DNA of 64,000 bases from Escherichia coli (lineage in GTDB: Bacteria; Pseudomonadota; Gammaproteobacteria; Enterobacterales; Enterobacteriaceae): NCBI RefSeq assembly GCF_003018115.1, contig NZ_CP027457.1. One strand, given 5' to 3'. This document shows, in pieces, positions 4,900-64,000 of the stretch. Position 1 is the first letter of the stretch. Every line of letters starts with the position of its first letter. The notes under the pieces are model-generated. The model saw nothing but the letters and a program-made list of their open reading frames with translations, did no database searches and had not been told where the DNA came from. Position numbers and translations under genes: made by a program.

Positions 4900-4902
4900 C
4901 GT

Positions 4903-4952
4903 GTCGTATGGCCCTGGTGGGGTAAAGCGCCAGGGCCAGAAGTCGATACGAC
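4903..4952. promoter_or_regulatory. interrupted GC-rich stem-loop between paaK and paaX (8-bp core stem GGCCCTGG/CCAGGGCC with flanking GTCGTAT/ATACGAC arms); possible attenuator or REP-like element
   Basis: Inverted repeat read directly from sequence; no U-tract follows, so not a canonical intrinsic terminator. Confidence 0.3.
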
Positions 4953-4999
4953 CTGTGCTATGATTCATAAATCACAACAATAACAACAGACTGAATCGA

Positions 5000-6522: not shown

Positions 6523-6564
6523 CGTCCAGATACTGAACATTCTAATTTTTAGCATGTGATCCCT

Positions 6565-6600
6565 AAACCGCAACGCTGATACAGGTTGCGGTTTATTATT
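6565..6600 (+). terminator. rho-independent terminator after paaY (AAACCGCAAC...GTTGCGGTTT then T-rich tract)
   Basis: 10-bp stem with 10-nt loop followed by TATTATT. Confidence 0.5.
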
Positions 6601-6764
6601 GCCGGATGCGGTGCTTGATGCGTCTTTTGCTGCCTAATGTTTTGGTGTCTTTCAGGATAACAGAGCAACTCATCCAGTAATCTTGTTTACGCCTTCGCAT
6701 TATTTATCTCTTTTCGTTTCTATACTGATTTTTCTTAATCCGTTTTATTACAGGGCAGGGTGCG

Positions 6765-7688: not shown

Positions 7689-7920
7689 ATGTTTAAGCCC
7701 AGGATTTGCAGCTGGATAGGTTTACTTCTCCTGTTTATGCTGAGTACTTCCAGTACAGGCGGAACTTCGATGTGTTGCAAATGCAGTTGATATTGAACCA
7801 TTTTTTTCTGCGGCTACCGCTGAAGATAAACAACAAGTTGAACAAGCTATCAACAGTAGCGTGAATCTTGTCCCTTCGGTTTATCTGCATCGGACTGGAA
7901 AGTGCATCGTGGCGATTTAG
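7689..7920 (+). pseudogene. decayed ORF remnant: 33-codon signal-peptide-like ORF (MFKPRICSWIGLLLLFMLSTSS...) then protein-like sequence continuing in a second frame (...AEDKQQVEQAINSSVNLVPSVYLHRTGK) before the 7902 ORF
   Basis: Three successive frames each carry short protein-like stretches separated by stops; read directly from sequence. Confidence 0.3.
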
Positions 7921-13300: not shown

Positions 13301-16300
13301 ATGACAGAACAACAAAAATTGACCTTTACTGCCTTGCAGCAGCGGCTGGATTCGCTGATGCTGCGTGACAGGCTGCGTTTTTCTCGCCGTCTGCACGGTG
13401 TGAAGAAGGTTAAAAATCCTGATGCACAACAGGCCATTTTCCAGGAGATGGCGAAAGAGATTGACCAGGCGGTAGGGAAAGTCCTGCTACGTGAAGCGGC
13501 ACGTCCGGAAATCACTTATCCGGACAATTTGCCGGTTAGTCAGAAAAAACAGGACATTCTCGAAGCGATTCGTGATCACCAGGTGGTAATCGTCGCCGGG
13601 GAAACGGGTTCTGGTAAAACGACTCAGTTACCGAAAATCTGTATGGAGCTGGGGCGCGGGATTAAAGGGCTGATCGGCCATACCCAGCCGCGTCGCCTGG
13701 CGGCAAGAACGGTGGCGAACCGTATTGCGGAAGAGCTGAAAACGGAGCCGGGCGGTTGCATCGGTTACAAAGTGCGTTTCAGCGATCACGTAAGTGATAA
13801 CACGATGGTCAAGCTGATGACCGACGGTATCCTGCTGGCGGAGATCCAGCAAGACCGCCTGCTGATGCAGTACGACACCATCATTATTGACGAAGCGCAC
13901 GAACGCAGCCTGAATATCGATTTTCTGCTCGGCTATTTGAAAGAGTTGCTGCCGCGGCGTCCTGACCTAAAAATCATTATCACTTCCGCGACTATCGACC
14001 CGGAACGCTTTTCGCGCCACTTTAATAATGCGCCGATTATTGAAGTCTCCGGTCGGACCTATCCGGTGGAAGTGCGCTATCGCCCGATTGTTGAAGAAGC
14101 CGATGACACCGAGCGCGATCAGTTGCAGGCGATTTTTGACGCCGTAGACGAACTAAGCCAGGAAAGCCCCGGCGACATTCTGATCTTTATGAGCGGCGAG
14201 CGGGAAATTCGCGATACCGCCGATGCGCTGAACAAGCTGAACTTACGCCATACCGAAATCTTGCCGCTTTATGCGCGGCTTTCGAATAGCGAACAGAACC
14301 GCGTGTTCCAGTCGCACAGCGGGCGACGCATTGTGCTGGCGACCAACGTCGCGGAAACCTCGCTGACTGTACCGGGGATTAAATACGTTATCGACCCCGG
14401 TACGGCGCGTATCAGCCGCTACAGCTATCGCACCAAAGTGCAGCGTTTGCCGATTGAGCCCATTTCGCAGGCGTCTGCCAATCAGCGTAAAGGCCGCTGT
14501 GGTCGTGTGTCCGAAGGGATCTGTATTCGTCTCTATTCCGAAGACGATTTCCTTTCGCGCCCGGAGTTTACCGATCCGGAGATTCTGCGTACCAACCTGG
14601 CCTCGGTTATTTTGCAGATGACCGCGCTGGGGTTGGGCGATATCGCCGCGTTCCCGTTTGTAGAAGCACCGGATAAACGCAATATCCAGGATGGCGTGCG
14701 TCTGCTCGAAGAGCTGGGCGCGATCACCACGGATGAACAGGCCAGCGCCTATAAACTGACACCGCTCGGTCGCCAGCTCTCGCAGTTGCCTGTCGACCCA
14801 CGTTTGGCGCGTATGGTGCTGGAAGCGCAAAAACATGGCTGCGTGCGTGAGGCGATGATTATCACGTCCGCGCTCTCCATTCAGGATCCGCGCGAGCGTC
14901 CGATGGATAAACAGCAGGCGTCGGACGAAAAACATCGCCGCTTCCACGACAAAGAATCCGACTTCCTCGCGTTTGTAAATCTGTGGAATTATCTTGGCGA
15001 GCAGCAAAAGGCGCTTTCTTCCAACGCCTTCCGTCGCCTGTGTCGTACCGATTATCTCAACTATCTGCGCGTGGGCGAATGGCAGGATATCTACACTCAG
15101 TTGCGCCAGGTGGTGAAAGAGCTTGGCATTCCGGTTAACAGCGAACCGGCGGAGTATCGCGAAATTCACATCGCCTTACTGACCGGTTTGCTTTCCCATA
15201 TCGGCATGAAAGATGCCGATAAACAAGAATATACCGGCGCACGTAACGCGCGTTTCTCCATCTTCCCCGGTTCTGGTTTATTCAAAAAACCGCCGAAATG
15301 GGTAATGGTGGCGGAACTGGTAGAAACCAGCCGCCTGTGGGGACGTATTGCGGCACGCATCGATCCAGAATGGGTGGAACCCGTCGCTCAGCATTTGATT
15401 AAACGTACCTACAGCGAACCGCACTGGGAACGGGCGCAGGGCGCGGTGATGGCAACGGAAAAAGTCACTGTTTATGGTTTGCCGATTGTTGCCGCGCGCA
15501 AGGTCAACTACAGCCAGATCGATCCGGCGTTATGTCGTGAACTCTTTATTCGCCACGCGCTGGTGGAAGGTGACTGGCAGACGCGTCACGCATTCTTTCG
15601 TGAAAACCTGAAACTGCGTGCCGAAGTGGAAGAGCTGGAACACAAATCACGTCGCCGCGATATTCTGGTGGATGACGAAACGCTGTTTGAGTTCTACGAC
15701 CAGCGCATCAGCCACGATGTAATCTCCGCTCGTCACTTCGACAGCTGGTGGAAAAAAGTCAGCCGCGAAACGCCTGATTTGCTCAACTTTGAAAAGAGCA
15801 TGTTGATCAAAGAAGGGGCGGAAAAAATCAGCAAGCTGGATTATCCGAACTTCTGGCATCAGGGCAATCTCAAGCTGCGTTTGAGCTATCAGTTTGAGCC
15901 AGGCGCGGACGCGGACGGTGTGACCGTACATATTCCGCTGCCGTTACTTAACCAGGTTGAGGAAAACGGGTTTGAATGGCAGATCCCCGGTCTGCGCCGC
16001 GAATTGGTGATTGCTCTGATTAAATCGTTGCCGAAACCGGTACGCCGTAATTTTGTGCCTGCACCAAACTACGCCGAAGCGTTTTTAGGCCGCGTCACAC
16101 CGCTGGAGTTACCGTTGCTCGACAGCCTTGAGCGCGAGTTACGGCGGATGACCGGTGTTACCGTTGACCGCGAAGACTGGCACTGGGATCAGGTGCCCGA
16201 TCACCTGAAAATCACCTTCCGCGTGGTGGATGACAAAAACAAGAAGCTAAAAGAAGGGCGCTCTCTACAAGATCTGAAAGATGCGCTGAAAGGCAAAGTG

Positions 16301-17203
16301 CAGGAAACGCTGTCTGCGGTGGCGGATGACGGTATCGAGCAGAGCGGCTTACATATCTGGAGTTTTGGTCAGCTGCCGGAAAGCTACGAACAGAAGCGTG
16401 GCAACTACAAAGTGAAGGCGTGGCCAGCGCTGGTGGATGAGCGCGACAGCGTGGCGATCAAACTGTTTGATAATCCGCTGGAACAAAAGCAGGCAATGTG
16501 GAACGGTCTTCGCCGTCTACTGCTGCTGAATATTCCATCGCCGATCAAGTATTTACATGAGAAGTTACCAAACAAAGCCAAGCTTGGACTGTACTTTAAC
16601 CCGTATGGCAAAGTGCTGGAGCTGATCGACGACTGTATCTCCTGCGGTGTGGATAAATTGATCGACGCCAATGGTGGCCCGGTCTGGACGGAAGAAGGCT
16701 TTGCTGCGCTGCATGAAAAAGTGCGCGCCGAACTGAATGACACGGTGGTGGATATTGCGAAGCAGGTCGAGCAAATCCTTACGGCGGTGTTCAATATCAA
16801 CAAACGCCTGAAGGGGCGGGTGGATATGACGATGGCGCTGGGGCTTTCTGACATTAAAGCGCAGATGGGCGGGCTGGTGTATCGCGGTTTTGTGACTGGT
16901 AACGGCTTCAAACGGCTGGGCGACACGCTGCGTTATTTGCAGGCGATTGAAAAACGGCTGGAAAAACTGGCGGTTGATCCACATCGCGATCGTGCACAGA
17001 TGCTGAAAGTCGAAAACGTCCAGCAGGCGTGGCAGCAATGGATCAACAAACTGCCGCCTGCACGTCGTGAGGATGAAGACGTGAAAGAGATCCGTTGGAT
17101 GATAGAAGAGCTGCGCGTTAGTTACTTCGCTCAACAACTCGGTACACCTTATCCGATTTCAGATAAGCGTATTTTGCAGGCGATGGAGCAGATTAGCGGT
17201 TAA
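13301..17203 (+). CDS. hrpA: ATP-dependent DEAH-box RNA helicase
   Basis: 1300-aa ORF; Walker A GETGSGKT, DEAH box (IIIDEAHERS), helicase-associated domains. Confidence 0.95.
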   Translation: MTEQQKLTFTALQQRLDSLMLRDRLRFSRRLHGVKKVKNPDAQQAIFQEMAKEIDQAVGKVLLREAARPEITYPDNLPVSQKKQDILEAIRDHQVVIVAGETGSGKTTQLPKICMELGRGIKGLIGHTQPRRLAARTVANRIAEELKTEPGGCIGYKVRFSDHVSDNTMVKLMTDGILLAEIQQDRLLMQYDTIIIDEAHERSLNIDFLLGYLKELLPRRPDLKIIITSATIDPERFSRHFNNAPIIEVSGRTYPVEVRYRPIVEEADDTERDQLQAIFDAVDELSQESPGDILIFMSGEREIRDTADALNKLNLRHTEILPLYARLSNSEQNRVFQSHSGRRIVLATNVAETSLTVPGIKYVIDPGTARISRYSYRTKVQRLPIEPISQASANQRKGRCGRVSEGICIRLYSEDDFLSRPEFTDPEILRTNLASVILQMTALGLGDIAAFPFVEAPDKRNIQDGVRLLEELGAITTDEQASAYKLTPLGRQLSQLPVDPRLARMVLEAQKHGCVREAMIITSALSIQDPRERPMDKQQASDEKHRRFHDKESDFLAFVNLWNYLGEQQKALSSNAFRRLCRTDYLNYLRVGEWQDIYTQLRQVVKELGIPVNSEPAEYREIHIALLTGLLSHIGMKDADKQEYTGARNARFSIFPGSGLFKKPPKWVMVAELVETSRLWGRIAARIDPEWVEPVAQHLIKRTYSEPHWERAQGAVMATEKVTVYGLPIVAARKVNYSQIDPALCRELFIRHALVEGDWQTRHAFFRENLKLRAEVEELEHKSRRRDILVDDETLFEFYDQRISHDVISARHFDSWWKKVSRETPDLLNFEKSMLIKEGAEKISKLDYPNFWHQGNLKLRLSYQFEPGADADGVTVHIPLPLLNQVEENGFEWQIPGLRRELVIALIKSLPKPVRRNFVPAPNYAEAFLGRVTPLELPLLDSLERELRRMTGVTVDREDWHWDQVPDHLKITFRVVDDKNKKLKEGRSLQDLKDALKGKVQETLSAVADDGIEQSGLHIWSFGQLPESYEQKRGNYKVKAWPALVDERDSVAIKLFDNPLEQKQAMWNGLRRLLLLNIPSPIKYLHEKLPNKAKLGLYFNPYGKVLELIDDCISCGVDKLIDANGGPVWTEEGFAALHEKVRAELNDTVVDIAKQVEQILTAVFNINKRLKGRVDMTMALGLSDIKAQMGGLVYRGFVTGNGFKRLGDTLRYLQAIEKRLEKLAVDPHRDRAQMLKVENVQQAWQQWINKLPPARREDEDVKEIRWMIEELRVSYFAQQLGTPYPISDKRILQAMEQISG

Positions 17204-33582: not shown

Positions 33583-34791
33583 GTGAAACGATTACAGGCA
33601 TTTAAATTCCAGTTAAGACCAGGTGGTCAACAGAAGTGTGAAATGAGGCGCTTCGCAGGCGCATGTCGTTTCGTTTTCAATCGTGCTCTGGCACGTCAGA
33701 ATGAGAATCATGAGGCCGGTAATAAATACATCCCTTACGGGAAAATGGCTTCCTGGCTGGTTGAGTGGAAAAATGCCACTGAAACGCAATGGCTTAAAGA
33801 TTCTCCCTCACAGCCATTGCAACAGTCACTGAAAGACCTTGAGCGGGCTTACAAAAACTTCTTCCGGAAGCGGGCTGCTTTTCCCCGATTCAAAAAGCGG
33901 GGACAGAATGATGCATTCCGCTACCCGCAGGGCGTTAAGCTCGATCAGGAAAACAGCCGTATTTTTCTGCCGAAACTGGGCTGGATGCGCTACCGGAATA
34001 GCCGTCAGGTCACGGGTGTTGTGAAAAATGTCACTGTCAGCCAGTCCTGCGGTAAGTGGTACATCAGTATTCAGACAGAAAGTGAAGTATCAACTCCGGT
34101 TCACCCTTCAGCATCAATGATCGGGCTGGATGCTGGCGTGGCTAAACTCGCCACGCTGTCAGATGGCACAGTCTTTGAGCCTGTAAACAGTTTTCAGAAA
34201 AACCAGAAGACGCTGGCGAGACTTCAGCGACAGTTAAGCCGCAAGGTCAAATTCAGCAACAACTGGCAGAAGCAGAAACGCAAAATACAGCGACTGCATT
34301 CCTGTATCGCAAATATCCGCAGGGACTACCTTCACAAAGTCACAACGGCCGTCAGCAAAAACCACGCAATGATAGTCATTGAGGATTTGAAGGTCAGCAA
34401 CATGTCAAAGTCAGCAGCGGGTACGGTCAGCCAGCCGGGGCGCAATGTCCGGGCAAAATCAGGTTTAAACCGTTCGATACTGGATCAGGGCTGGTATGAA
34501 ATGCGCCGCCAGCTTGAGTACAAGCAGCTCTGGCGTGGCGGTCAGGTGCTTGCTGTTCCGCCAGCGTATACAAGCCAGCGTTGCGCGTACTGTGGTCATA
34601 CAGCGAAAGAGAACCGCCTGTCACAAAGTAAATTCAGATGCCATGTATGTGGATATACAGCGAACGCCGATGTAAATGGCGCTCGTAACATTTTAGCGGC
34701 GGGGCACGCCGTTCTTGCCTGTGGAGAGATGGTGCAGTCAGGCCGCCCGTTGAAGCAGGAACCCACCGAAATGATTCAGGCGACAGCCTGA
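33583..34791 (+). CDS. insQ: TnpB (IS605 OrfB family) RuvC-like RNA-guided-nuclease-type transposon protein
   Basis: 402-aa ORF; RuvC-like motifs ([24 protein letters not shown]) and Zn finger CAYCGH...CHVCGY. Confidence 0.85.
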
Positions 34792-49990: not shown

Positions 49991-50187
49991 AGTTTCAACG
50001 GCGGCGTAAGCCGCCATAAAAATCCAGGCAAAAAGCTTATTTTCAGCTTTAATTAACTAACCACGTCATTGTTCTGCTGCTAATAACAACAAAGGTGGGT
50101 GGTTTATGATTATTCACTTTAATACACCAGGTGAACTCCTTCTGCCGTGCAGGCAGGGTTGGACAGAAAACACGCGAAGGAATTAAA

Positions 50188-50853
50188 ATGCCTGGAATGG
50201 GAAAAATGAAACATGTCAGTTTGACTCTGCAGGTTGAGAACGACCTGAAACATCAGCTTAGTATTGGCGCATTAAAACCTGGCGCACGCCTGATTACTAA
50301 AAATCTGGCGGAGCAATTAGGTATGAGTATTACACCTGTGCGTGAAGCATTATTACGTCTGGTTTCGGTGAATGCGCTTTCTGTCGCACCTGCACAAGCA
50401 TTTACAGTTCCGGAAGTGGGGAAACGTCAATTAGACGAAATCAATCGGATCCGCTACGAACTGGAATTAATGGCAGTTGCTCTGACTGTTGAAAACCTCA
50501 CCCCGCAAGACCTGGCGGAACTCCAGGAATTGCTCGAGAAATTACAGCAGGCGCAAGAAAAGGGCGACATGGAACAAATCATTAATGTAAACAGGCTATT
50601 TCGCTTAGCGATTTATCATCGCTCAAATATGCCCATCCTGTGTGAGATGATTGAGCAACTGTGGGTCAGGATGGGGCCTGGTTTACATTATCTCTATGAA
50701 GCGATTAATCCAGCGGAATTACGGGAGCATATAGAAAACTATCATCTGTTACTCGCTGCGTTAAAAGCAAAAGACAAAGAGGGATGCAGACATTGTCTTG
50801 CTGAAATTATGCAACAAAATATTGCTATTTTATACCAGCAATACAATCGTTAA
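50188..50853 (+). CDS. mcbR: GntR/FadR-family transcriptional regulator
   Basis: Internal ATG giving MPGMGKMKHVSL..., 221 aa; N-terminal wHTH. Confidence 0.8.
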   Translation: MPGMGKMKHVSLTLQVENDLKHQLSIGALKPGARLITKNLAEQLGMSITPVREALLRLVSVNALSVAPAQAFTVPEVGKRQLDEINRIRYELELMAVALTVENLTPQDLAELQELLEKLQQAQEKGDMEQIINVNRLFRLAIYHRSNMPILCEMIEQLWVRMGPGLHYLYEAINPAELREHIENYHLLLAALKAKDKEGCRHCLAEIMQQNIAILYQQYNR

Positions 50854-50858
50854 AGTAA

Positions 50859-50880
50859 ATGCCCGGCAAATACCGGGCAT
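50859..50880. terminator. hairpin between convergent mcbR and yncD (GCCCGG-CAAATA-CCGGGC), U-tract on the yncD side
   Basis: Read from sequence. Confidence 0.45.
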
Positions 50881-50888
50881 CAAGGTAA

Positions 50889-52991
50889 TTACTCAAATCT
50901 CCACGCAATATTCATGCCGACACCATAATTTCGTCCGGGCGAAGGTTCGTAATATCGCCCGTTTGACTCATTGACAATGACAGAACCAACGTATTCTTTA
51001 TCGAATAAATTATCGACACGACCAAATAAATCCACAGTTAAATTGTGGTAATTGTATTTATACCCGGTGAATAAGCCGACGAGAGTATAAGACGGCGCTT
51101 TTGCCGTATTTTCATCATCTGCCATAATATCGCCCATATAACGCGCTTCCGTGCCTGCATACCAACCATCTTCCGGTACATAACCTATCGACGCAAAGCC
51201 CATATTACGGGCGATCCCTGGCATCCGATTACCGTTACAATCCTGTTCATTGCAAACATTGCTGCGATAGGTCGCATCAAGCCAGGTCCAGGACGCGTTT
51301 ACGCGAAAATCTCCTGCGAAACGTTGATCCCATGCCAGTTCAGCGCCTTGACGACGGGTCTTTCCGGCATTTTTGTAAGTCGTACGCCCACCGCTACTGC
51401 TATCGACAACAATTTCATCATCAGTGTCGGTCTGAAACAATGCGAGACTAAGCAGCCCATCACCAATACGCGTTTTACTGCCGATCTCAATTGTATCGTT
51501 GGTGGATGGTTTTAAACCAAAGTTCATACCGCTTTGCCCATCAGCACGATAAGACAGCTCATTAATCGTCGGCGTTTCAAAACCTCGCCCGGCTGCCAGA
51601 TAGATATTCCAGGCATCGGTCATTGCATATTTTAACGAACCGGCAGGTAGCCATTTATGATAACTGGCATCACCGCTGTCATCGCCGTTACCCGGAGTAA
51701 CGTAATGGTCGTTGGAATCAAACCACACGGAGCTGTAGCGCACGCCAGCATCCAGCGACAGTTTTTCGCTCAGCTGCCACTGCGTCTGTAAATAGGGATC
51801 GATGTTCCACATCAGATTGCGTTCGTCGCGACGCAACTCACCTTTTTGCCCGTACTCCGGCATGCCGCTATTCAGGCGGAAGTTATTGTAGCCCTTGCGG
51901 TTTTCACTCATGTTTTCGTAGTTCAGGCCGGTAGTGAACGTGACCGGAACGCCCAGTTCACCACGGTGTGTCCAGCGGCTGTCTATCCCCTGGTAATGGC
52001 GTTGCAGGGTAATCACGCCGCCCGCATGTGACGGGTTAAGTTGTGGTGCCATGGGTATTGACTGGTACTGGGTCGTTTCTCGCTCTCCGGCATACATCAT
52101 CACACTCATATCATCTTGCGCGCTCAGGCTACGTTCATAGCGCAACCCAGCCTGAGTTTGCTTGATGGTTTTTCGCGTGTCGTACTGTTCAGCGCGTGGC
52201 GCGTGTTGCGGATTCGCCTTCCATTCTGCTTCGGTTAGCCCACCTGGGTCATCTGCTTTGATATCCACGCTATTGAAAATCAGGCTTACTTTGCTGGCGT
52301 CATCAATGCGTACGCCCAGTTTGGCATTGGCTAAATTTTTCTGTGCGCCGCTATGGTCACGATAGCCGTGGGTCGTAAAACGCGTGGTTGAGACGGTGTA
52401 ATCGACATCGCCGGGCTGTGTGCCGTCGCCCGTTGCACCCGTTGCTTTGAGCCCATAGCGCCAGCTGCCAAAACTGCCGTAGTAACTGCTGGCTTCAATG
52501 GTTGGTGGCTGTTGCCCGGTCTGGGTGGTGACATTCATTACACCGCCAGACGCGTTGCCATACAGGGCAGAGAAGGGGCCACGCAGCACTTCCACATTTT
52601 GCACACTGCTTAAATCGATGTTGGATGTTTGCCCTTGCCCGTCGGGCATGGTAGCGGGAATACCGTCCACATACAGGCGAATACCGCGAATTCCGTAAGT
52701 GGAGCGGGAGCCAAATCCGCGAATCGACAGCTGTAAATCTTGCGCATAGTTCTGCCGATTTTGTACCTGCAAACCAGGCACGCTGGTCAGTGATTCGGAC
52801 AAGTTAATGCGCGGTGTTGCCAGGCGCATCTCCTCGCCATCCACCACGCTTACTGCTGCTGGGGTATCCAGTTCTGAAACCACCTGCGGTGCGGCACTGA
52901 CAATCATGGTCTGTTCATCAGCGGCAAAAACAACGGGGGAAAGGGCAAGTAGTGCGGGCAAAACGGTCTGTCGGACGGAAAAAATCTTCAT
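50889..52991 (-). CDS. yncD: TonB-dependent outer-membrane receptor
   Basis: 700-aa ORF; signal peptide, plug, C-terminal beta-barrel ending ...NIAWRFE (terminal aromatic). Confidence 0.9.
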   Translation of the reverse strand: MKIFSVRQTVLPALLALSPVVFAADEQTMIVSAAPQVVSELDTPAAVSVVDGEEMRLATPRINLSESLTSVPGLQVQNRQNYAQDLQLSIRGFGSRSTYGIRGIRLYVDGIPATMPDGQGQTSNIDLSSVQNVEVLRGPFSALYGNASGGVMNVTTQTGQQPPTIEASSYYGSFGSWRYGLKATGATGDGTQPGDVDYTVSTTRFTTHGYRDHSGAQKNLANAKLGVRIDDASKVSLIFNSVDIKADDPGGLTEAEWKANPQHAPRAEQYDTRKTIKQTQAGLRYERSLSAQDDMSVMMYAGERETTQYQSIPMAPQLNPSHAGGVITLQRHYQGIDSRWTHRGELGVPVTFTTGLNYENMSENRKGYNNFRLNSGMPEYGQKGELRRDERNLMWNIDPYLQTQWQLSEKLSLDAGVRYSSVWFDSNDHYVTPGNGDDSGDASYHKWLPAGSLKYAMTDAWNIYLAAGRGFETPTINELSYRADGQSGMNFGLKPSTNDTIEIGSKTRIGDGLLSLALFQTDTDDEIVVDSSSGGRTTYKNAGKTRRQGAELAWDQRFAGDFRVNASWTWLDATYRSNVCNEQDCNGNRMPGIARNMGFASIGYVPEDGWYAGTEARYMGDIMADDENTAKAPSYTLVGLFTGYKYNYHNLTVDLFGRVDNLFDKEYVGSVIVNESNGRYYEPSPGRNYGVGMNIAWRFE

Positions 52992-53127
52992 GAAAAAAGC
53001 CAGGTTAAGAATGGGAAAACGCCGTTATGGTAATGAAATTGTAAATTTATGGAAAACGAAACGGCACGATACGTTAAGTAATTGAGAAAATTGTAGTCGT
53101 AACGGCAAGAAATGCTCCACATTTGAG

Positions 53128-53146
53128 AAAATAATGATTACCATTC
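53128..53146 (+). promoter_or_regulatory. Fur-box-like site (AAAATAATGATTACCATTC) in the yncD-yncE divergent intergenic region
   Basis: About 15 of 19 matches to GATAATGATAATCATTATC; adjacent to a TonB-dependent receptor gene. Confidence 0.35.
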
Positions 53147-53232
53147 CCATTTATAACAAGAGCGTAACGATGATTACGCTTAGCGAAGCATTGTGAAGCA
53201 GCAAAAATATCGGTTCATCAAAGGGAGTCGTC

Positions 53233-54294
53233 ATGCATTTACGTCATCTGTTTTCATCGCGCCTGCGTGGTTCATTACTGTTAGGTTCATTGCTTGTTGC
53301 TTCATCATTCAGTACGCAGGCCGCAGAAGAAATGCTGCGTAAAGCGGTAGGTAAAGGTGCCTACGAAATGGCTTATAGCCAGCAAGAAAACGCACTGTGG
53401 CTCGCCACTTCGCAAAGCCGCAAACTGGATAAAGGTGGCGTGGTTTATCGTCTTGATCCGGTCACTCTGGAAGTGACGCAGGCGATCCATAACGATCTCA
53501 AGCCGTTTGGTGCCACCATCAATAACACGACTCAGACGTTGTGGTTTGGTAACACCGTAAACAGCGCGGTCACGGCGATAGATGCCAAAACGGGCGAAGT
53601 GAAAGGCCGTCTGGTGCTGGATGATCGTAAGCGCACGGAAGAGGTGCGCCCGCTGCAACCGCGTGAGCTGGTAGCTGATGATGCCACGAACACCGTTTAC
53701 ATCAGTGGTATTGGTAAAGAGAGCGTGATTTGGGTCGTTGATGGCGAGAATATCAAACTGAAAACCGCCATCCAGAACACCGGTAAAATGAGTACCGGTC
53801 TGGCGCTGGATAGCAAAGGCAAACGTCTTTACACCACTAACGCTGACGGCGAATTGATTACCATCGACACCGCCGACAATAAAATCCTCAGCCGTAAAAA
53901 GCTGCTGGATGACGGCAAAGAGCACTTCTTTATCAACATTAGCCTTGATACCGCCAGGCAGCGTGCATTTATCACCGATTCTAAAGCCGCAGAAGTGTTA
54001 GTGGTCGATACCCGTAATGGCAATATTCTGGCGAAGGTTGCGGCACCGGAATCACTGGCTGTGCTGTTTAACCCAGCGCGTAATGAAGCCTACGTAACGC
54101 ATCGTCAGGCAGGTAAAGTCAGTGTGATTGACGCGAAAAGCTATAAAGTGGTGAAAACGTTCGATACGCCGACTCATCCGAACAGCCTGGCGCTGTCTGC
54201 CGATGGCAAAACGCTGTATGTCAGTGTAAAACAAAAATCCACTAAACAGCAGGAAGCTACCCAGCCGGACGATGTGATTCGTATTGCGCTGTAA
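53233..54294 (+). CDS. yncE: seven-bladed beta-propeller periplasmic protein (YncE family)
   Basis: 353-aa ORF with signal peptide. Confidence 0.85.
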   Translation: MHLRHLFSSRLRGSLLLGSLLVASSFSTQAAEEMLRKAVGKGAYEMAYSQQENALWLATSQSRKLDKGGVVYRLDPVTLEVTQAIHNDLKPFGATINNTTQTLWFGNTVNSAVTAIDAKTGEVKGRLVLDDRKRTEEVRPLQPRELVADDATNTVYISGIGKESVIWVVDGENIKLKTAIQNTGKMSTGLALDSKGKRLYTTNADGELITIDTADNKILSRKKLLDDGKEHFFINISLDTARQRAFITDSKAAEVLVVDTRNGNILAKVAAPESLAVLFNPARNEAYVTHRQAGKVSVIDAKSYKVVKTFDTPTHPNSLALSADGKTLYVSVKQKSTKQQEATQPDDVIRIAL

Positions 54295-54375
54295 TAGATT
54301 TGGCGAGGGTGAAAACGGAGAGACTTGCCTGACTTTTTTCACGCCGTATCCGGCACTTTCGTCAGTAATCTGAAT

Positions 54376-54403
54376 TTGCCCGGCACGTAGCCGGGCAATT
54401 TTG
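54376..54403. terminator. bidirectional terminator between yncE and ansP (TTGCCCGGC-ACGTA-GCCGGGCAA then TTTTG)
   Basis: 9-bp stem then T-tract. Confidence 0.5.
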
Positions 54404-54406
54404 CAA

Positions 54407-55906
54407 TTAACTCGCCGTTTCAGGCTTAAACACAATTTCCTGTTTTTCTTCATCTTCCTCGACGACTGGCGCAGTGCTGTGAATTTCGGCAACGCGTTTG
54501 CGCACACCAAACCAACCCACAACCAGCAGAAGGCCAATAATCGGCAGCGAAGCAATGGTATAAGTCCCGTTCGGGTAATCGAACGCCATCAGCACCAGTA
54601 CGCTCAGCAAAAACAATAACGTCAGCCAGGAAGTGAAGGGGGCACCGGGGAGTTTAAAACTGACATCTGCCGCTTTACCTTCTTTAATAGCCTTACGCAG
54701 ACGCATCTGGCAAACGATGATAAACGCCCATGAAGCGATGATTCCCAGCGACGCGAAGTTCAACACAATCTCAAATACGCGTGACGGCACCAGATAGTTG
54801 AGGAATACGCCGACGACATACACAACCAGTGTCGCCAGAATCCCGGCATACGGCACATGCTGACGGCTCATTTTCGCCATAAAACTCGGTGCGGAACCGC
54901 CCATCGCCATTGAGCGCAGAATACGCCCGGTGCAGTACAGGCCTGAGTTCAGGCTGGAGAGTGCAGCGGTCAGCACCACAATATTCATAATGCTGCCGAT
55001 ATACGGCACGCCAAGTTTAGAGAAGAAAGTCACAAAAGGACTCTGCCCGGCCTGGTATGCATTCCACGGCAGCAATAGCACCAGCAGAACCACCGAACCC
55101 ACATAGAACAGACCGATACGCCAAATAACACTGTTGATCGCTTTCGGCACCATCGTCTGTGGATCTTTACATTCACCAGCCGCAGTACCTACCAGTTCAA
55201 TCGATGCAAAGGCAAAAACCACCCCCTGGATAAGCACCAGTGCAGGCAGCAGCCCGTGCGGGAAGAAACCGCCATTATCGGTAATTAAATGGAACCCTGT
55301 GGTATTACCATCCAGCGGCTGACCACTACCGAGGAACACCGTACCCACCACCAGGAAGATCACAATAGCGAGCACTTTAATGAGTGCAAACCAGAACTCC
55401 ATCTCTGCGAACCATTTCACACCGATCATGTTCATGGTGCCTACGATGGTCAGCGCAGCGAGCGCAAAGACCCACTGCGGCACGTCGCCAAACGCCCCCC
55501 AGTAATGCATATACAGCGCTACAGCGGTGATATCGACAATCCCCGTCATCGCCCAGTTGATGAAATACATCCAGCCAGCAACATAAGCGGCTTTCTCACC
55601 CAAAAACTCACGGGCATAAGAGACAAAACTGCCACTGGAAGGGCGGTGTAACACCAGCTCACCCAATGCACGTAGAATAAAAAATGAAAACAGGCCGCAG
55701 ATCAAATAGACCAGTGCCAGTGCGGGCCCCGCCATTTGCAGTCGGGCTCCTGCACCTAAAAACAAGCCGGTGCCAATCGCGCCGCCAATGGCGATCATCT
55801 GTACCTGGCGATTGCCCATCGCTTTGTGATACCCCTCTTCGTGGGCATTAAGCCAGCGGCGTTTCGCGGCGTGTTGATCTGAAGTGTCGGTGTCGTGTTT
55901 ACTCAT
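54407..55906 (-). CDS. ansP: L-asparagine permease (APC family)
   Basis: Internal ATG giving MSKHDTDTSDQHAAKRRWLNAHEEGYHKAMGNRQVQMIAIGGAIGTG..., 499 aa. Confidence 0.9.
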   Translation of the reverse strand: MSKHDTDTSDQHAAKRRWLNAHEEGYHKAMGNRQVQMIAIGGAIGTGLFLGAGARLQMAGPALALVYLICGLFSFFILRALGELVLHRPSSGSFVSYAREFLGEKAAYVAGWMYFINWAMTGIVDITAVALYMHYWGAFGDVPQWVFALAALTIVGTMNMIGVKWFAEMEFWFALIKVLAIVIFLVVGTVFLGSGQPLDGNTTGFHLITDNGGFFPHGLLPALVLIQGVVFAFASIELVGTAAGECKDPQTMVPKAINSVIWRIGLFYVGSVVLLVLLLPWNAYQAGQSPFVTFFSKLGVPYIGSIMNIVVLTAALSSLNSGLYCTGRILRSMAMGGSAPSFMAKMSRQHVPYAGILATLVVYVVGVFLNYLVPSRVFEIVLNFASLGIIASWAFIIVCQMRLRKAIKEGKAADVSFKLPGAPFTSWLTLLFLLSVLVLMAFDYPNGTYTIASLPIIGLLLVVGWFGVRKRVAEIHSTAPVVEEDEEKQEIVFKPETAS

Positions 55907-56172
55907 TGCTCTCCCTGATTGCTTTAATGAAAAAGTCATATAAGTTGCCATGAACAATGTTTATTCATCCTGGCGATGATAGTTATCACCATTATTCTTT
56001 ATGGGTATAAAACTATCGGCGCAGCATCCTACCCGTTATCGATAAACGATGCAAAACATCCCCTTACAATCCTGAAGGGGAATAATACAACTGACGAAAA
56101 AATGACAAATCCTTTTGCTGGTTAACCTGTGTACTGTCCTACACTTAATCTTTAAAAGATTGTGAGGGGCAT

Positions 56173-56790
56173 ATGATTAAGGTGTATGGCGTACCCGGAT
56201 GGGGCTCTACAATCAGTGAGCTGATGCTAACACTGGCTGATATTCCTTATCAGTTCTTTGATGTCAGTGGTTTTGACCACGAGGGAACTTCACGCGAGTT
56301 ATTGAAAACCCTGAACCCGTTGTGTCAGATTCCGACACTGGCGCTGGAAAATGACGAGATTATGACGGAGACAGCGGCGATTGCATTGATGGTTCTCGAT
56401 CGTCGCCCGGACCTTGCGCCACCGGTTGGGCGCGCCGAACGTCAGCTGTTTCAACGGCTATTGGTCTGGCTGGTTGCTAATGTCTATCCAACATTCACTT
56501 TCGCCGATTACCCTGAGCGTTGGGCTCCTGACGCACCTGAACAGTTAAAGAAGAATGTTATTGAATATCGAAAATCGCTTTATATCTGGTTGAATTCGCA
56601 GCTCACTGCTGAACCTTATGCGTTTGGTGAGCAACTAACGCTGGTGGACTGTTATCTTTGCACTATGCGCACATGGGGGCCTGGGCATGAATGGTTTCAG
56701 GATAATGCCACGAATATCAGTGCGATTGCTGATGCTGTATGTCAGTTACCGAAATTACAAGAAGTATTAAAAAGGAATGAAATTATTTGA
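56173..56790 (+). CDS. yncG: glutathione S-transferase homologue
   Basis: 205-aa ORF with thioredoxin-like N-domain. Confidence 0.8.
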   Translation: MIKVYGVPGWGSTISELMLTLADIPYQFFDVSGFDHEGTSRELLKTLNPLCQIPTLALENDEIMTETAAIALMVLDRRPDLAPPVGRAERQLFQRLLVWLVANVYPTFTFADYPERWAPDAPEQLKKNVIEYRKSLYIWLNSQLTAEPYAFGEQLTLVDCYLCTMRTWGPGHEWFQDNATNISAIADAVCQLPKLQEVLKRNEII

Positions 56791-56865
56791 GTGGGATACC
56801 AGAAGATTATGTTATTTATTATTCAGTAACTTTATCCACAATGATGGGCGTAATTAATTAAATTC

Positions 56866-57078
56866 ATGGTATGTTTTTTAATTTATATCACTCTCCTTTT
56901 CATTCAGCGTGTCTATTTCATTTCCTCTGAAAAGAAACTAACTATTCACATTGTGCAGATGGTTCAGTTGTTATCACAGGCATTCTATAATCTCAAAATG
57001 TTTTTAATGATGGATATGCTCGGAGTTGGAGATGCAATTAATATTAATACAAATAAAAATATCCGGCAGGTATGCTAA
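56866..57078 (+). CDS. yncH: small hydrophobic protein in AT-rich tract
   Basis: 70-aa ORF; weak coding signal, assignment mainly by position. Confidence 0.5.
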   Translation: MVCFLIYITLLFIQRVYFISSEKKLTIHIVQMVQLLSQAFYNLKMFLMMDMLGVGDAININTNKNIRQVC

Positions 57079-57897
57079 AAGGATAAATGGCGTTCTCTGT
57101 ATTTATTCGCAATTATCTGTAGGACAAATATGGAGAGCTTGATGAGTCAGAGCTAAAACAGCAATTGATTAATAAACATGTTGATTTATTCAAGAAAATG
57201 GATGTATTTTAAATGTTGATTCTTAATATAACCTAATCAATAGATTATCAAGTGAGAGCTACACATTATTGGAGGGGCAGGGGAAAACACCATTTTGGGA
57301 ACAATGCATCAGGTACTCTTACCACTGAAGCAAGATCATCCGGCACCAGGTGGTGGTGCAGTGCTTTGGAAATGGTCCCCTCGGGGGAGTTGTCATTATT
57401 TTCTATGCTATTTGCTTATTATATTCATCAGGTGAATTTAATAAATTCCTAATTTGAAATATCCACTATTAAGCTAGTGTTTAACGACGTTAAGATGGCA
57501 ATGTGCAGATCATGTTATCAGGGTGGGGCGGTAGCGTATATTCCTTATACAAACCATCATTCATTTCAATGATTGTTATTGAATTATTTATTGTTGTGAA
57601 TAAAAAGACATTATGAATATTGGTTTGACTTTGCATATCAGGTTTTTTATTACTCGCTGTAATGTACGAGCCTGTCGTGAATAACGTCGAGAACCCATCC
57701 GTTGCGTTTGTGATTATTTTGTTGACTAAACAGACACCCGTTTCTCTGAAGTAAAATCCCAGACTAAATCATCACATAACCATGACATTTTTCTGATATT
57801 CCCCGGTAACGCCAGATGTCGACTCGCTTATCTCATCCGCCCGACATGTTGTACATGCAATATGTGCGGATTATTATTCATTTTCACGGAGGTTGCT

Positions 57898-60006
57898 ATG
57901 TCAACCGGATTACGTTTCACACTGGAAGTGGACGGCCTGCCACCGGACGCTTTTGCGGTGGTTTCCTTTCATCTCACCCAGTCACTCTCTTCACTCTTTT
58001 CCCTCGATCTCTCCCTGGTCAGCCAGCAGTTTCTCTCCCTTGAATTTGCGCAGGTGCTGGACAAAATGGCCTACCTGACAATATGGCAGGGTGATGATGT
58101 ACAGCGCCGGGTGAAAGGTGTGGTGACCTGGTTTGAACTGGGGGAGAACGACAAAAACCAGATGCTGTACAGCATGAAGGTGCACCCGCCGCTGTGGCGT
58201 GCCGGTCTGCGCCAGAACTTCCGTATCTTCCAGAACGAGGACATCAAAAGCATCCTCGGCACGATATTGCAGGAAAACGGGGTGACCGAGTGGAGTCCGC
58301 TGTTCAGTGAACCGCATCCTTCCCGTGAGTTTTGTGTCCAGTACGGTGAGACTGATTACGATTTCCTGTGCCGGATGGCGGCGGAGGAAGGCATCTTCTT
58401 TTATGAGGAGCATGCTTACAAAAGTACCGACCAGAGCCTGGTGCTGTGCGACACGGTCCGCCATCTGCCCGAATCTTTTGAAATCCCCTGGAACCCGAAC
58501 CCCCGTACCGAGGTGAGCACCCTCTGCATCAGCCAGTTTCGCTACAGCGCACAAATCCGCCCTTCTTCCGTGGTGACCAAAGACTACACCTTTAAACGCC
58601 CCGGCTGGGCAGGACGTTTTGATCAGGAAGGCCAGCACCAGGATTACCAGCGCACGCAGTATGAGGTGTATGACTACCCCGGACGTTTCAAGGGCGCCCA
58701 CGGGCAGAACTTTGCCCGCTGGCAGATGGAGGGCTGGCGAAACAATGCAGAAACCGCGCGGGGAATGAGTCGCTCGCCGGAGATATGGCCGGGACGGCGA
58801 ATTGTGCTGACGGGGCATCCGCAGGCGAACCTGAACCGGGAATGGCAGGTGGTGGCGAGCGATCTTCACGGCGAACAGCCGCAGGCGGTACCGGGACGCA
58901 GGGGTTCAGGCACCACGCTGGATAACCATTTTGCGGTAATACCGGCAGACCGGACATGGCGACCACAGCCGTTGCTGAAACCGCTGGTGGATGGCCCGCA
59001 GAGCGCCGTCGTGACGGGACCGGCAGGCGAGGAAATCTTCTGCGACGAACATGGTCGCGTGCGGGTGAAATTTAACTGGGACCGCTATAACCCGTCAAAC
59101 CAGGACAGTTCATGCTGGATCCGTGTGGCACAGGCGTGGGCAGGCACCGGCTTTGGCAACCTGGCGATACCGCGTGTGGGTCAGGAGGTGATTGTGGACT
59201 TCCTCAACGGCGATCCGGACCAGCCGATTATTATGGGGCGTACCTACCACCAGGAAAACCGCACACCCGGCAGCCTGCCGGGGACGAAGACGCAGATGAC
59301 CATTCGTTCGAAAACCTATAAGGGCAGCGGGTTTAATGAACTGAAGTTTGACGATGCGACAGGGAAAGAACAGGTCTACATCCACGCGCAGAAGAACATG
59401 AACACCGAGGTGCTGAATAACCGCACCACGGATGTGATAAACAACCATGCTGAGACCATTGGCAACAATCAGATGATTGCGGTTACCAACAATCAGATAC
59501 AGACGGTGGGCGTTAACCAGATAGAGACGGTGGGCAGTAACCAGATCATTAACGTGGGTTCTGTTCAGGTGGAAACGATTGGACTTGTTCGTGCGCTGAC
59601 CGTGGGCGTGGCGTACCAGACGACGGTAGGTGGCATTATGAACACTTCGGTGGCTCTGATGCAGTCCTCGCAGATCGGTTTGCATAAATCGTTGAGGGTC
59701 GGGCTGGGTTATGACGTCAAAGTCGGAAATAACGTTACCTTCACCGTTGGTAAAACGAAAAAGGATGATACCGGGCAGACCGCGATTTACTCCGCCGGTG
59801 AGCATCTGGAGCTCTGCTGTGGTAAGGCAAAGCTGGTGCTGACAAAGGACGGTCAAATTTTTCTCAACGGCACAAAAATTCATTTGCAGGGTAAGGAGCA
59901 GGTTAATGGTGACTCACTGTTGATTAACTGGAACTGTGCAGCCTCGAAATCCCCACCGAAGACCCCTGATGAAAAGCAGGATACGCCGGATATGAGAGAG
60001 TACTGA
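57898..60006 (+). CDS. vgrG: VgrG-family protein (T6SS spike, gp27/gp5-like) with Val-Gly repeat C-terminal region
   Basis: ATG at 57898 after GGAGG; MSTGLRFTLEVDGLPPDAF...; VG-rich repeats (NNQMIAVTNNQIQTVGVNQIETVGSNQIINVGSVQVETIG); high GC. Confidence 0.85.
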   Translation: MSTGLRFTLEVDGLPPDAFAVVSFHLTQSLSSLFSLDLSLVSQQFLSLEFAQVLDKMAYLTIWQGDDVQRRVKGVVTWFELGENDKNQMLYSMKVHPPLWRAGLRQNFRIFQNEDIKSILGTILQENGVTEWSPLFSEPHPSREFCVQYGETDYDFLCRMAAEEGIFFYEEHAYKSTDQSLVLCDTVRHLPESFEIPWNPNPRTEVSTLCISQFRYSAQIRPSSVVTKDYTFKRPGWAGRFDQEGQHQDYQRTQYEVYDYPGRFKGAHGQNFARWQMEGWRNNAETARGMSRSPEIWPGRRIVLTGHPQANLNREWQVVASDLHGEQPQAVPGRRGSGTTLDNHFAVIPADRTWRPQPLLKPLVDGPQSAVVTGPAGEEIFCDEHGRVRVKFNWDRYNPSNQDSSCWIRVAQAWAGTGFGNLAIPRVGQEVIVDFLNGDPDQPIIMGRTYHQENRTPGSLPGTKTQMTIRSKTYKGSGFNELKFDDATGKEQVYIHAQKNMNTEVLNNRTTDVINNHAETIGNNQMIAVTNNQIQTVGVNQIETVGSNQIINVGSVQVETIGLVRALTVGVAYQTTVGGIMNTSVALMQSSQIGLHKSLRVGLGYDVKVGNNVTFTVGKTKKDDTGQTAIYSAGEHLELCCGKAKLVLTKDGQIFLNGTKIHLQGKEQVNGDSLLINWNCAASKSPPKTPDEKQDTPDMREY

Positions 60007-60073
60007 TCCCGTACCTGTTCGATATTCATTAACAAACCAGCATTAAAAATAAACAGAAGAAGGAATTTGAATC

Positions 60074-63000
60074 ATGAGCGGAAAACCAGCGGCGCGTCAG
60101 GGAGATATGACTCAGTATGGCGGTCCCATTGTCCAGGGTTCGGCAGGTGTAAGAATTGGCGCGCCAACTGGCGTGGCGTGCTCGGTGTGTCCGGGCGGGA
60201 TGACCTCGGGCAACCCGGTGAACCCGCTGCTCGGTGCAAAAGTACAGCCCGGCGAGACGGACCTTGCGCTGCCCGGCCCGCTGCCGTTCATTCTCTCCCG
60301 CACCTACAGCAGCTACCGGACCCGGACGCCTGCACCGGTGGGCGTTTTCGGCCCCGGCTGGAAAGCGCCTTCTGATATCCGCTTACAGCTACGTGATGAC
60401 GGACTGATACTCAACGACAACGGCGGGCGGAGCATTCACTTTGAGCCGCTGCTGCCAGGGGAGGCGGTGTACAGCCGCAGCGAGTCCCTGTGGCTGGTGC
60501 GCGGTGGTAAGGCAGCACAGCCGGACGGCCATACGCTGGCACGGCTGTGGGCGTCGCTGCCGCCGGATATCCGGTTAAGCCCGCATCTTTACCTGGCGAC
60601 CAACAGCGCACAGGGGCCGTGGTGGATACTGGGGTGGTCTGAGCGGGTGCCGGGTGCTGAGGACGTACTGCCAGCGCCGCTGCCGCCGTACCGGGTGCTT
60701 ACCGGGATGGCGGACCGCTTCGGGCGGACGCTGACGTACCGGCGTGACGGACGGTGCCGGGCGTGAGTTCCGTCTGGTGCTGACCACACAGGCGCAGCGG
60801 GCGGAAGAGGCCCGGCAGCAGGCGGTCGTCGCCGGAGCAAAACGACCGGACATTCCTGATTCACTGCCGGAGAGCACAGAGTACGGCCCCGACAGGGGTA
60901 TCCGTCTTTCAGCGGTGTGGCTGATGCACGACCCGGCATACCCGGAGAATCTGCCCGGTGCGCCACTGGCGCGGTACACGTATACGGAAGCCGGTGAACT
61001 GCTGGCGGTATATGACCGCAGCAATACGCAGGTGCGTGCTTTCACGTATGACCCGCAGCACCCGGGCCGGATGGTGGCGCACCGTTACGCGGGAAGGCCG
61101 GAGATGCGCTACCGCTACGACGATACGGGGCGGGTGGTGGAGCAACTGAACCCGGCAGGGTTAAGCTACCGCTATCTTTATGAGCAGGACCGCATCACCG
61201 TCACCGACAGCCTGAACCGGCGTGAGGTGCTGCATACAGAAGGCGGGGCCGGGCTGAAGCGGGTGGTGAAAAAAGAACTGGCGGACGGCAGCGTCACGCG
61301 CAGCGGGTATGACCCGGTGGGGCGGCTTACGGCGCAGACGGACGCGGCGGGACGGCGGACAGAGTACGGTCTGAATGTGGTGTCAGTCGACATCACGGAT
61401 ATCACCACGCCGGACGGGCGGGAGACGAAATTTTACTATAACGACGGGAACCAGTTAACGGCAGTGGTGTACCCGGACGGGCTGGAGAGCAGCCGGGCAT
61501 ATGATGAGCTGGACAGGCTGGTAACGGAGACATCGCGCAGCGGGGAGACAGTACGCTACCGCTATGATGATGCGCACAGTGAATTACCGGCCACAACAAC
61601 AGATGCGACGGGCAGCACCCGGCAGATGACGTGGAGCCGCTACGGTCAGTTGCTGGCGTTCACCGACTGCTCGGGCTACCAGACCCGCTATGAATACGAC
61701 CGCTTCGGCCAGATGACGGCGGTCCACCGCGAGGAAGGCATCAGCCTTTACCGCCGCTATGACAACCGTGGCCGGTTAATCTCGGTGAAAGACGCACAGG
61801 GCCATGAAACGCGGTATGAATACAACGCCGCAGGCGACCTGACTGCCCTCATTACCCCGGACGGCAACCGGAGCGAGACACAGTACGATGCGTGGGGAAA
61901 GGCGGTCAGCACCACGCAGGGCGGGCTGACGCGCAGTATGGAATACGACCTTGCCGGACGCATCACCACGCTGACCAACGAGAACGGCAGCCGGAGTGAG
62001 TTTACCTACGATGCGCTTGACCGGCTGGTACAGCAGCGCGGCTTTGACGGGCGGACGCAACGTTACCACTATGACCTGACCGGAAAACTCACGCAGAGTG
62101 AAGATGAGGGGCTTGTCACCCTCTGGCACTACGACGAATCGGACCGCCTCACTCACCGCACGGTGAACGGCGAACCGGCAGAGCAGTGGCAGTATGATGG
62201 CCACGGCTGGCTGACAGAAATCAGCCACCTGAGCGAAGGCCATCAGGTGGCGGTGCATTACGGTTATGATGATAAGGGCCGCCTGGCCGGGGAGCGCCAG
62301 ACGGTGCATAACCCGGAGACGGGGGAACTGCTGTGGCAGCATGAGACAGAGCACGCATACAACGAACAGGGGCTGGCAAACCGCGTCACGCCGGACGGCC
62401 TGCCGCGGGTGGAGTGGCTGACCTACGGCAGCGGTTATCTTGCGGGGATGAAGCTGGGCGGGACACCTCTGGTCGAGTATACGCGGGACCGCCTGCACCG
62501 GGAAACTGCGCGCAGCTTTGGTAACGGAACGGGCAGTACAGCCGCATATGAACTGACCAGCACTTACACCCCCGCAGGCCGGTTACAGAGCCAGCACCTG
62601 AACAGCCTGATGTATGACCGTGACTACGTGTGGAATGACAACGGCGACCTGGTGCGCATCAGCGGCCCGCGACAGACGCGGGAATACGGCTACAGCGCCA
62701 CGGGCAGGCTGGAGAGCGTGCGCACCCTCGCACCGGACCTGGACATCCGCATCCCGTATGCCACCGACCCGGCGGGAAACCGGCTGCCGGACCCGGAGCT
62801 ACACCCGGACAGCACGCTCACGGCGTGGCCGGATAACCGCATCGCGGAGGATGCGCACTATGTTTACCACTATGATGAATACGGCAGGCTGACGGAGAAG
62901 ACGGACCGCATCCCGGCGGGTGTGATACGGACGGACGACGAGCGGACCCACCACTACCACTACGACAGCCAGCACCGTCTGGTGTTCTACACGCGGATAC

Positions 63001-64000
63001 AGCATGGCGAGCCGCAGGTGGAGAGCCGCTACCTCTGTGACCCGCTGGGACGGCGAATGGCGAAACGGGTATGGCGGCGGGAGCGTGACCTGACAGGATG
63101 GATGTCGCTGTCGCGTAAACCGGAGGTGACGTGGTATGGCTGGGACGGAGACAGGCTGACGACGGTACAGACAGACCAGACCCGTATCCAGACGGTCTAC
63201 CAGCCGGGGAGCTTCACGCCGCTCATCCGTATCGAGACAGAGAACGGCGAACGGGAGAAAATGCAGCGCCGCAGCCTAGCGGAGAAGTTACAGTCGGAAG
63301 GGAGTGAGGACGGTCACGGTGTGGTGTTCCCGGCTGAGCTGGTGAGGATGCTGGACAGGCTGGAGGAAGAAATCCGGGCAGGCCGCGTGAGCAGTGAAAG
63401 CCGGGCGTGGCTTGCGCAGTGCGGGCTGACGGTGGAGCAACTGGCCAGACAGGTGGAGCCGGAATACACACCGGCGCGAAAAGTTCATCTTTATCACTGC
63501 GACCACCGGGGCCTGCCGCTGGCGCTCATCAGCGAAGACGGCAATACGGCGTGGCGCGGGGAGTATGATGAATGGGGCAACCAGCTTAATGAGGAGAACC
63601 CGCATCATGTGTATCAGCCATACCGCCTGCCGGGGCAGCAGTATGATGAGGAGTCGGGGCTGTACTATAACCGCAACCGGTACTATGATCCGTTGCAGGG
63701 GAGGTATATTACCCAGGATCCGATTGGGCCAGTGGGGGGGTGGAATCCCTATAGTTATGTGCTTAATAATCCAGCCCAGTTTATTGACCCAACAGGTTTA
63801 ACTCAAGAGGACAATTGGACCTATGGTGAGGTAGGTAATAGCTGTGTTACGAGTCAACGCGATTTTACTCCCCCGCCCGGACTTGCGGATATGAAAGCCA
63901 GCATTGGCGCTGCCTGCTCAAGAAACAATGCTTCCAGAAACTGCCACCCCGTAGATGGTAGTAATGCTTCTGCACCATCGGATAAAGCCGCATGGGAAAA
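60074..64000 (+). pseudogene. rhsE: Rhs-family polymorphic toxin gene (PAAR-like N-domain, YD-repeat core, start of C-terminal toxin), interrupted by a frame change near 60732-60766; 3' end beyond window
   Basis: N-terminal 230-codon ORF 60074-60766 (MSGKPAARQGDMTQYGGPIVQGSAGVRIGAPTGVACSVCPGG...); core continues in frame +1 from 60735 ([25 protein letters not shown]...) with YD repeats to a DPxGL core end at 63786-63800, then a divergent lower-GC C-terminal region. Confidence 0.7.

Follow-up and report, generated by a model that had tools for sequence, protein, structure and literature searches.

The RhsE/vgrE element of an Escherichia coli chromosome: an intact vgrG gene next to an rhs gene split by a 38-bp deletion

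The name 'Vgr' derives from Rhs-linked Vgr genes like those of the RhsE/vgrE element of Escherichia coli, and orphan islands of a vgrG gene and its effector gene that are served in trans by a distant type VI secretion system (T6SS) are a well-established concept. We analysed such a module at the right end (positions 57898-64000) of a stretch of 64,000 nucleotides of ordinary E. coli chromosome (contig NZ_CP027457.1 of assembly GCF_003018115.1), referred to as the window. In the literature, the RhsE element, or vgrE orphan locus, is described with yncG-yncH on its left and, in relatives, pptA on its right, and consists of vgrG, a 67-bp spacer, rhs, a small open reading frame (ORF), ISEc1/H-repeat and orphan rhs tips (PMC12981562, PMC7216683). 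The element is prone to decay: enterohaemorrhagic E. coli have it in fragments and K-12 in truncated form, and in strain F9792 a deletion has fused parts of it.

Judged by its sequence and gene order, the region is this already known element at the yncH-pptA site. The exact VgrG protein of the window is encoded on 14 other contigs (exact look-up), and seven of these, L010-L016, are readable, independent draft contigs that match the window collinearly, with 99.97-100% identity over as much as 16.1 kb. The right side of the locus was read from these contigs: L010, which matches the last 3.26 kb of the window at 100% identity, continues past the window end with the toxin tail of rhs, a 207-aa ORF with a signal peptide, ISEc1, pptA, yddH, nhoA, yddE and narI, and a like right flank is present in the annotated genomes of strains 2824, TB06051, F9792 and K-12, while L011 has extra rhs fragments instead. 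The placement, with ISEc1/H-repeat and rhs tips downstream, is thus that of RhsE, and the vgrG gene lies directly 5' of the effector gene at a site without T6SS core (tss) genes, as in an orphan vgrG island. No tss gene was found anywhere within the 64-kb window, which covers 57 kb 5' of vgrG. An earlier note on this DNA, made from the letters alone, had correctly described vgrG (57898-60006) followed by rhs 67 bp later (from 60074), and its statement that only housekeeping genes and none of the T6SS core lie upstream is true over 57 kb. It had left undecided whether the module is delivered in trans by a T6SS encoded elsewhere or is a remnant. For the cargo this choice is largely settled on the remnant side, as the rhs gene is frameshifted: most probably, the module is a known RhsE/vgrE element with its cargo broken by a deletion private to this sequence, and hence a very recently decayed remnant.

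The rhs gene (MSGKPAARQGD... at its start) is distributed over two reading frames; both pieces are on the plus strand, as are vgrG, the deletion junction, the toxin part and yncH described below. The 5' fragment of 230 codons (60074-60766) ends at a premature TGA (60764-60766), matches positions 1-226 of the NCBIfam RHS_core profile and holds a PAAR-like N-terminus (aa 1-47), a PVNP autocleavage-site motif at aa 48 and a Pfam DUF6531 domain (aa 46-123, E 3.5e-19). The remainder, in the shifted frame, encodes the YD-repeat shell and the Rhs-associated core (60735-63800; RHS_core positions 235-1261). This frame matches RHS_core (NF041261) with 2143 bits (cutoff 2000), has five YD_repeat_2x stretches and a TIGR03696 match at aa 944-1022 (90 bits), and its shell part ends in DPIGP...DPTGL (63717-63800), conforming to the PxxxxDPxGL pattern expected at the end of such a core. 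From 60735 it stays open to the window end, over 1088 codons, and it has no start codon of its own. One continuous Rhs ORF leading from docking region through shell to toxin is absent from the window: the frame shifts after codon 224, the last six codons of the 230-codon stub are out of frame, and RHS_core positions 227-234 are lost through the missing segment and the change of frame. The earlier note had seen an Rhs gene with a PAAR-like N-domain; the rhs assignment stands, the single reading frame does not (stop at 60766), and the N-terminus matches the Pfam PAAR_motif on aa 2-29 with E-values of 0.07 and 0.67, below significance. The same N-terminus marginally matches the PAAR-like tip protein of a contractile injection system (9rce_c, E 0.19), literally contains P-A-A-R and places 47 aa before the conserved PVNP motif, as in Tse5 of Pseudomonas aeruginosa; 'PAAR-like' is a fair but unproven label for this putative VgrG cap.

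The split is due to 38 nt that the window lacks at 60737 when aligned with E. coli strain 2824. In intact alleles, the 10-bp repeat ACCGGCGTGA is present twice, 38 bp apart, in the order ...ACGT ACCGGCGTGA GGCCGCCGGTGACCTGGCCGGGGAAATC ACCGGCGTGA CGG..., and ...YRREAAGDLAGEITGVTDG... is encoded at this place; at the deletion junction of the window (60738-60747), a sole copy of the repeat remains, a feature that distinguishes the window from the known RhsE copies. As the loss is clean and flanked by a direct repeat, it looks like the result of replication slippage between the two 10-bp repeats. All seven near-identical contigs retain the 38 nt and encode an intact Rhs protein of 1404 aa. The repeat copies of L010 are at 12841 and 12879, and once the 38 nt are removed in silico, L010 equals the window over 16,103 nt save two single nucleotide polymorphisms (SNPs). 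Nor is the loss shared by other genomes: every top match to the query 60500-61100 among 5426 complete E. coli genomes spans 639 nt per 601 query nt, the exact 48-nt junction is absent from GTDB species representatives, and an exact look-up found no record of the 230-aa stub as a called gene product. Given that seven near-identical contigs retain the segment and that only these 2 SNPs separate the window from L010, the lesion is, as far as these sequences tell, private to the window and very recent.

When the locus was compared across E. coli, as the earlier note had proposed, the yncG-vgrG-rhs arrangement of RhsE was covered to at least 80% in 2585 of the 5426 complete genomes, and the best copies in complete genomes reached only 94-96% identity to the vgrG/rhs allele of the window. 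The closest complete genomes are those of enterotoxigenic E. coli (ETEC) O169:H41 strains such as F9792; their identity to the window is 99.8-99.9% in 30000-54000 and 99.6% in 50001-58608. At the same locus (L004, 8317-12140), F9792 has lost 2.5 kb in a separate event, with a junction overlap of 7 bp, and this joins vgrG nt 1-711 to the 3' part of rhs. The F9792 locus keeps the same downstream ORF, of 197 aa (WP_223718882.1), and a second full-length RHS gene is found further downstream. The alignment of K-12 to the window breaks off at 57830 and starts again at 62221; accordingly, the K-12 'rhsE' pseudogene is the same element, from which vgrG and 2.1 kb at the 5' end of rhs have been lost.

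Decay in F9792 extends to its other T6SS genes. The sole other vgrG homologue of this strain is part of an orphan vgrG-eagR-rhs locus on the cusS side, where the PAAR/RHS gene is frameshifted, and its T6SS cluster at aspV/yafT (L009, 12172-16584) consists only of hcp, a frameshifted vasL and a C-terminal fragment of tssM. The tssM fragment and an rhs fragment are joined head-to-head, and a small ORF and ISEc1 are also present. Other genomes with an identical YafT protein have an intact cluster hcp-vasL-tssM-vasJ-vasI-clpV, and, from these related E. coli genomes, the T6SS cluster adjoining aspV/yafT is a candidate machine for delivery in trans. The pattern across the relatives is, at the level of their sequences, a lineage-wide erosion.

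Several points weigh against a recently decayed, non-functional module. Its loss of function is deduced from reading frames. The clone of the window split from F9792 before F9792 suffered its own vgrG-rhs deletion. Genomes sharing the YafT protein show either the stump or the intact aspV cluster (L018, L020, L021, L024-L026), and none of these YafT-context samples coincides with the near-identical contigs L010-L016. Lastly, the deletion is present in one sequence only. The module could thus be intact, functional and fired in trans, with the 38-bp gap an artefact of sequencing, assembly or propagation by cloning; we regard this as unlikely, albeit as the alternative that survives best. The intact 1404-aa rhs on seven out of seven contigs of 99.97-100% identity and the 2 SNPs to L010 leave two options, an extremely recent event or an artefact. 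However, a clean loss of 38 bp between 10-bp direct repeats is what slippage or microhomology deletion typically leaves, and errors of assemblers or base calling are usually indels of 1-2 nt or repeat collapses. Breakage of rhs is also nothing unusual in this setting, as the rhs genes at RhsE and its sister loci are repeatedly broken in relatives (PMC12981562). The region as a whole is not a misassembly, a concern raised by the earlier note: all seven contigs are collinear with it.

A split rhs that still works, either by docking of the stub with a separate shell-plus-toxin protein or by a programmed +1 frameshift within 60735-60766, is very improbable. It would draw on the 32-nt overlap of the two frames and on the absence of other lesions from vgrG and the toxin part, but no relative has the same arrangement, arguing against a conserved recoding site, the downstream frame has no evident start, positions 227-234 of the RHS_core profile are removed, and, going by the characterised Rhs effectors, secretion needs a shell that is covalently continuous with the docking region before autocleavage. 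A complete T6SS locus immediately beyond the window, with the module not an orphan at all, is the least credible of the alternatives, as L010, like the annotated genomes, has in this place the immunity candidate, ISEc1, pptA and nar genes and no T6SS cluster.

With the recently decayed remnant as the preferred explanation, rhs is best marked here as a pseudogene split by a 38-bp deletion and not as a deliverable effector. The locus is one more example of T6SS cargo that erodes fast, in a lineage where little of the aspV machine is left in the complete genome closest to the window. Its discovery value is low: it is a textbook RhsE/vgrE element, ordinary and already decaying in this genome.

The first gene of the module is, by its sequence, unambiguously a vgrG (historically vgrE), and it is intact: the ORF runs uninterrupted from MSTGLRF at 57898 to the stop at 60006 and encodes a T6SS spike protein of 702 aa. 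A further in-frame ATG at 57862, 36 nt 5' of this start, is not the start in annotated relatives. VgrG matches TIGR03361 with 625.8 bits (cutoff 186.35; profile positions 1-512 of 513) and TIGR01646 with 447.6 bits (both NCBIfam), and the Pfam families Phage_GPD (1e-74), Phage_base_V (8e-15) and Gp5_trimer_C (6e-26), so that a single uninterrupted protein holds the gp27-like hub, the gp5 OB fold and the gp5 C-terminal beta-helix domains. The nearest PDB structures are VgrG1 of P. protegens (7q5p, E 1e-100) and VgrG1 of P. aeruginosa (4mtk, E 4e-96); the Sci-1 VgrG of enteroaggregative E. coli (6sjl) is far more distant (87 bits). The spacer between vgrG and rhs (60007-60073) has 67 bp, and equally so in L010-L016.

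The rhs gene is more divergent than its surroundings: the 3' part (61131-64000) is 95% identical to the F9792 copy (L004, 9021-11890), with flanks of 99.6%, and the top-scoring matches for 60500-61100 come from rhs genes located elsewhere on the chromosome in O121 and O103 strains. Both observations would fit gene conversion and mosaicism among rhs paralogues.

Behind the shell, the window holds the first 66 of the 149 codons of a polymorphic C-terminal toxin (63801-64000), cut by the window end. This part is 100% identical to L010, L012, L015 and L016 and 99.75% identical to L001 and L002, and the toxin variant is common to strains 2824, TB06051 and F9792. In L010, the complete toxin tip is encoded at 15930-16391 and the 207-aa ORF at 16442-17065. 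This ORF, which is found in near-identical contigs 50 bp 3' of the toxin and starts with a signal-peptide-like N-terminus (MKRFFITCCVMTLFLFVKCKAAC), is a candidate immunity gene. The 207-aa ORF has no Pfam match, and the toxin tip has none even at E <= 10, nor has any of 44 family members. An exhaustive phmmer search placed the toxin domain in 75 representative clusters at 50% identity. In the 45 examined it lies at or near the C-terminus, save for three proteins with tails of about 120 residues, and is preceded by varying N-terminal contexts: Rhs fragments, signal peptides or Cys-containing regions typical of other polymorphic toxins. Residues G9, S34, C85 and C91 are invariant, and E10, C39, C48, C97, W65, N67 and D76 are shared by 90% of the members or more.

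The AlphaFold (AF2) model of the toxin is confident (pLDDT, the predicted local distance difference test, is 92) and its fold weakly resembles SleB, with all fold scores below the usual significance limits. Assignment to SleB/CwlJ (Hydrolase_2) by sequence profile failed, with neither a Pfam match nor a PDB sequence match, and a search of the family profile against the PDB returned only chance-level matches to picornavirus VP4 and T4 lysozyme (E > 0.1), which were rejected. The SleB/CwlJ hydrolases, which are lytic transglycosylase-like, and the T6SS peptidoglycan glycosidase effectors are candidate analogues of the toxin, which has no match to Pfam or the PDB at the level of sequence. Taken together, the varied contexts, the conserved residues, the AF2 model and the signal-peptide ORF suggest, as a hypothesis, a peptidoglycan glycosidase that acts in the periplasm. 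We tentatively propose that the Cys-rich toxin of 149 aa may define an undescribed family of such toxins, with a remote SleB/lytic-transglycosylase-like fold, that is found at the tips of Rhs proteins and of proteins with unrelated N-termini and is neutralised by a signal-peptide immunity protein of no known family; the odds are somewhat against this proposal. The unclassified toxin/immunity pair is a modest lead for the cataloguing of toxin domains and the only mildly new item of this locus.

The left part of the window is housekeeping chromosome. Positions 1-6522 hold paaH-paaI-paaJ-paaK-paaX-paaY, and 6536-57000 is collinear with the annotated housekeeping genes of E. coli 2824 from pdxI to yncH: pdxI is followed in order by genes through hrpA, aldA, trg, opgD, tehAB and ydcR-V, and then by patD, curA, mcbR, pqqU, yncE, ansP, yncG and yncH. 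The last of these (DUF5445, 70 aa, 56866-57078) is the conserved left neighbour of the RhsE locus and is annotated at the equivalent place in E. coli 2824, TB06051, F9792 and K-12. Between yncH and vgrG lies an AT-rich intergenic leader (57079-57897, GC content about 0.29-0.41), which K-12 retains despite its lack of vgrG; homology to K-12 reaches 57830, 68 bp before the vgrG start. In a consensus scan of 56700-60200 for promoters and terminators, the counts did not exceed those in shuffled sequence, which also holds for promoter-like hexamers (57515-57542 and 57850-57877), and an Rfam scan of 55900-64000 matched no RNA family. The GC content is 0.501 for window positions 1-56800, 0.353 for 56800-57897, 0.555 for vgrG, 0.63 for the rhs core and 0.505 for the last 200 nt, where the toxin tip starts. 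The module is thus GC-richer than its AT-rich left flank, as the earlier note had observed; of the horizontal acquisition proposed there from this contrast, the atypical composition holds, and a novel or recent acquisition does not, as this is a known RhsE locus with an arrangement that is covered to 80% or more in 2585 of 5426 genomes.

Further differences to other strains were observed in the left part. At 6522-6765, pdxI (ydbC) directly follows paaY, and the ydbA autotransporter gene of K-12 and 2824 is absent, likewise in F9792. Compared with strain 2824 and K-12, the window lacks 2.3 kb within 7902-9362 (junction near 8567/8568): ydbD is without its 3' part, ynbB is without its 5' part and ynbA is missing altogether. 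The outcome is a fusion ORF of 486 aa with a C-terminus that matches phosphatidate cytidylyltransferase. In ETEC F9792, this lesion carries the annotation of two pseudogenes, which makes it a lineage marker; it is an older deletion that the window shares with the O169:H41 strains. At 33583-34791, an ORF of 402 aa is collinear with insQ (an RNA-guided endonuclease of the IS200/IS605 TnpB type), which appears open here and is annotated as frameshifted in strain 2824. An ansP block on the minus strand (54501-55500) is 85-93% identical to strain 2824 with flanks of 96-100%, and looks from these values like a recombined ansP allele; the enclosing region 50001-58608 is 99.6% identical overall to F9792.

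Beyond RhsE itself, the module can be compared with characterised VgrG-PAAR/Rhs effector pairs, namely P. aeruginosa Tse5 (PDB 8cp6), P. protegens RhsA-VgrG1 (7q5p; PMC8765631), Tre23 Rhs of Photorhabdus (7q97; PMC8636562), TseI of Aeromonas (PMC7170923) and Rhs1/Rhs2 of Serratia (PMC4924876). By analogy to these, we infer how an intact copy would work: the short Rhs N-terminus would sit on the tip of the VgrG trimer, the YD-repeat shell would encapsulate the 149-aa toxin until release by autocleavage at PVNP and DPxGL, and the loaded spike would be shot into neighbouring bacteria by a T6SS whose genes lie elsewhere. In this genome, the 38-bp deletion, probably by slippage, puts rhs out of frame; what is left is a 230-codon stub with the VgrG-docking end and the plug region and neither shell nor toxin, and a shell-plus-toxin part without start codon. 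The cargo would be inactive, and vgrG is intact. The Rhs counterpart by sequence is Tse5 (8cp6_B), where rhs aa 48-169 align to the start of the cage (E 5e-17). The solved Tse5 chain begins at PVNPMLG, the counterpart of PVNPLLG at aa 48 of the window rhs, which by homology probably marks the N-terminal autocleavage site, just as DPIGP...DPTGL probably marks the place of the aspartyl autocleavage by which the toxin is set free within the shell. The module shares the YD shell, the DPxGL motif and the polymorphic toxin tip with the characterised VgrG-Rhs pairs. Unlike the cusS-side orphan locus of F9792, it has no gene for an Eag/DUF1795 chaperone between vgrG and rhs, and it differs from the characterised Rhs pairs in the small size of its N-terminal PAAR-like piece (about 47 aa) and in the frameshift of its rhs gene.

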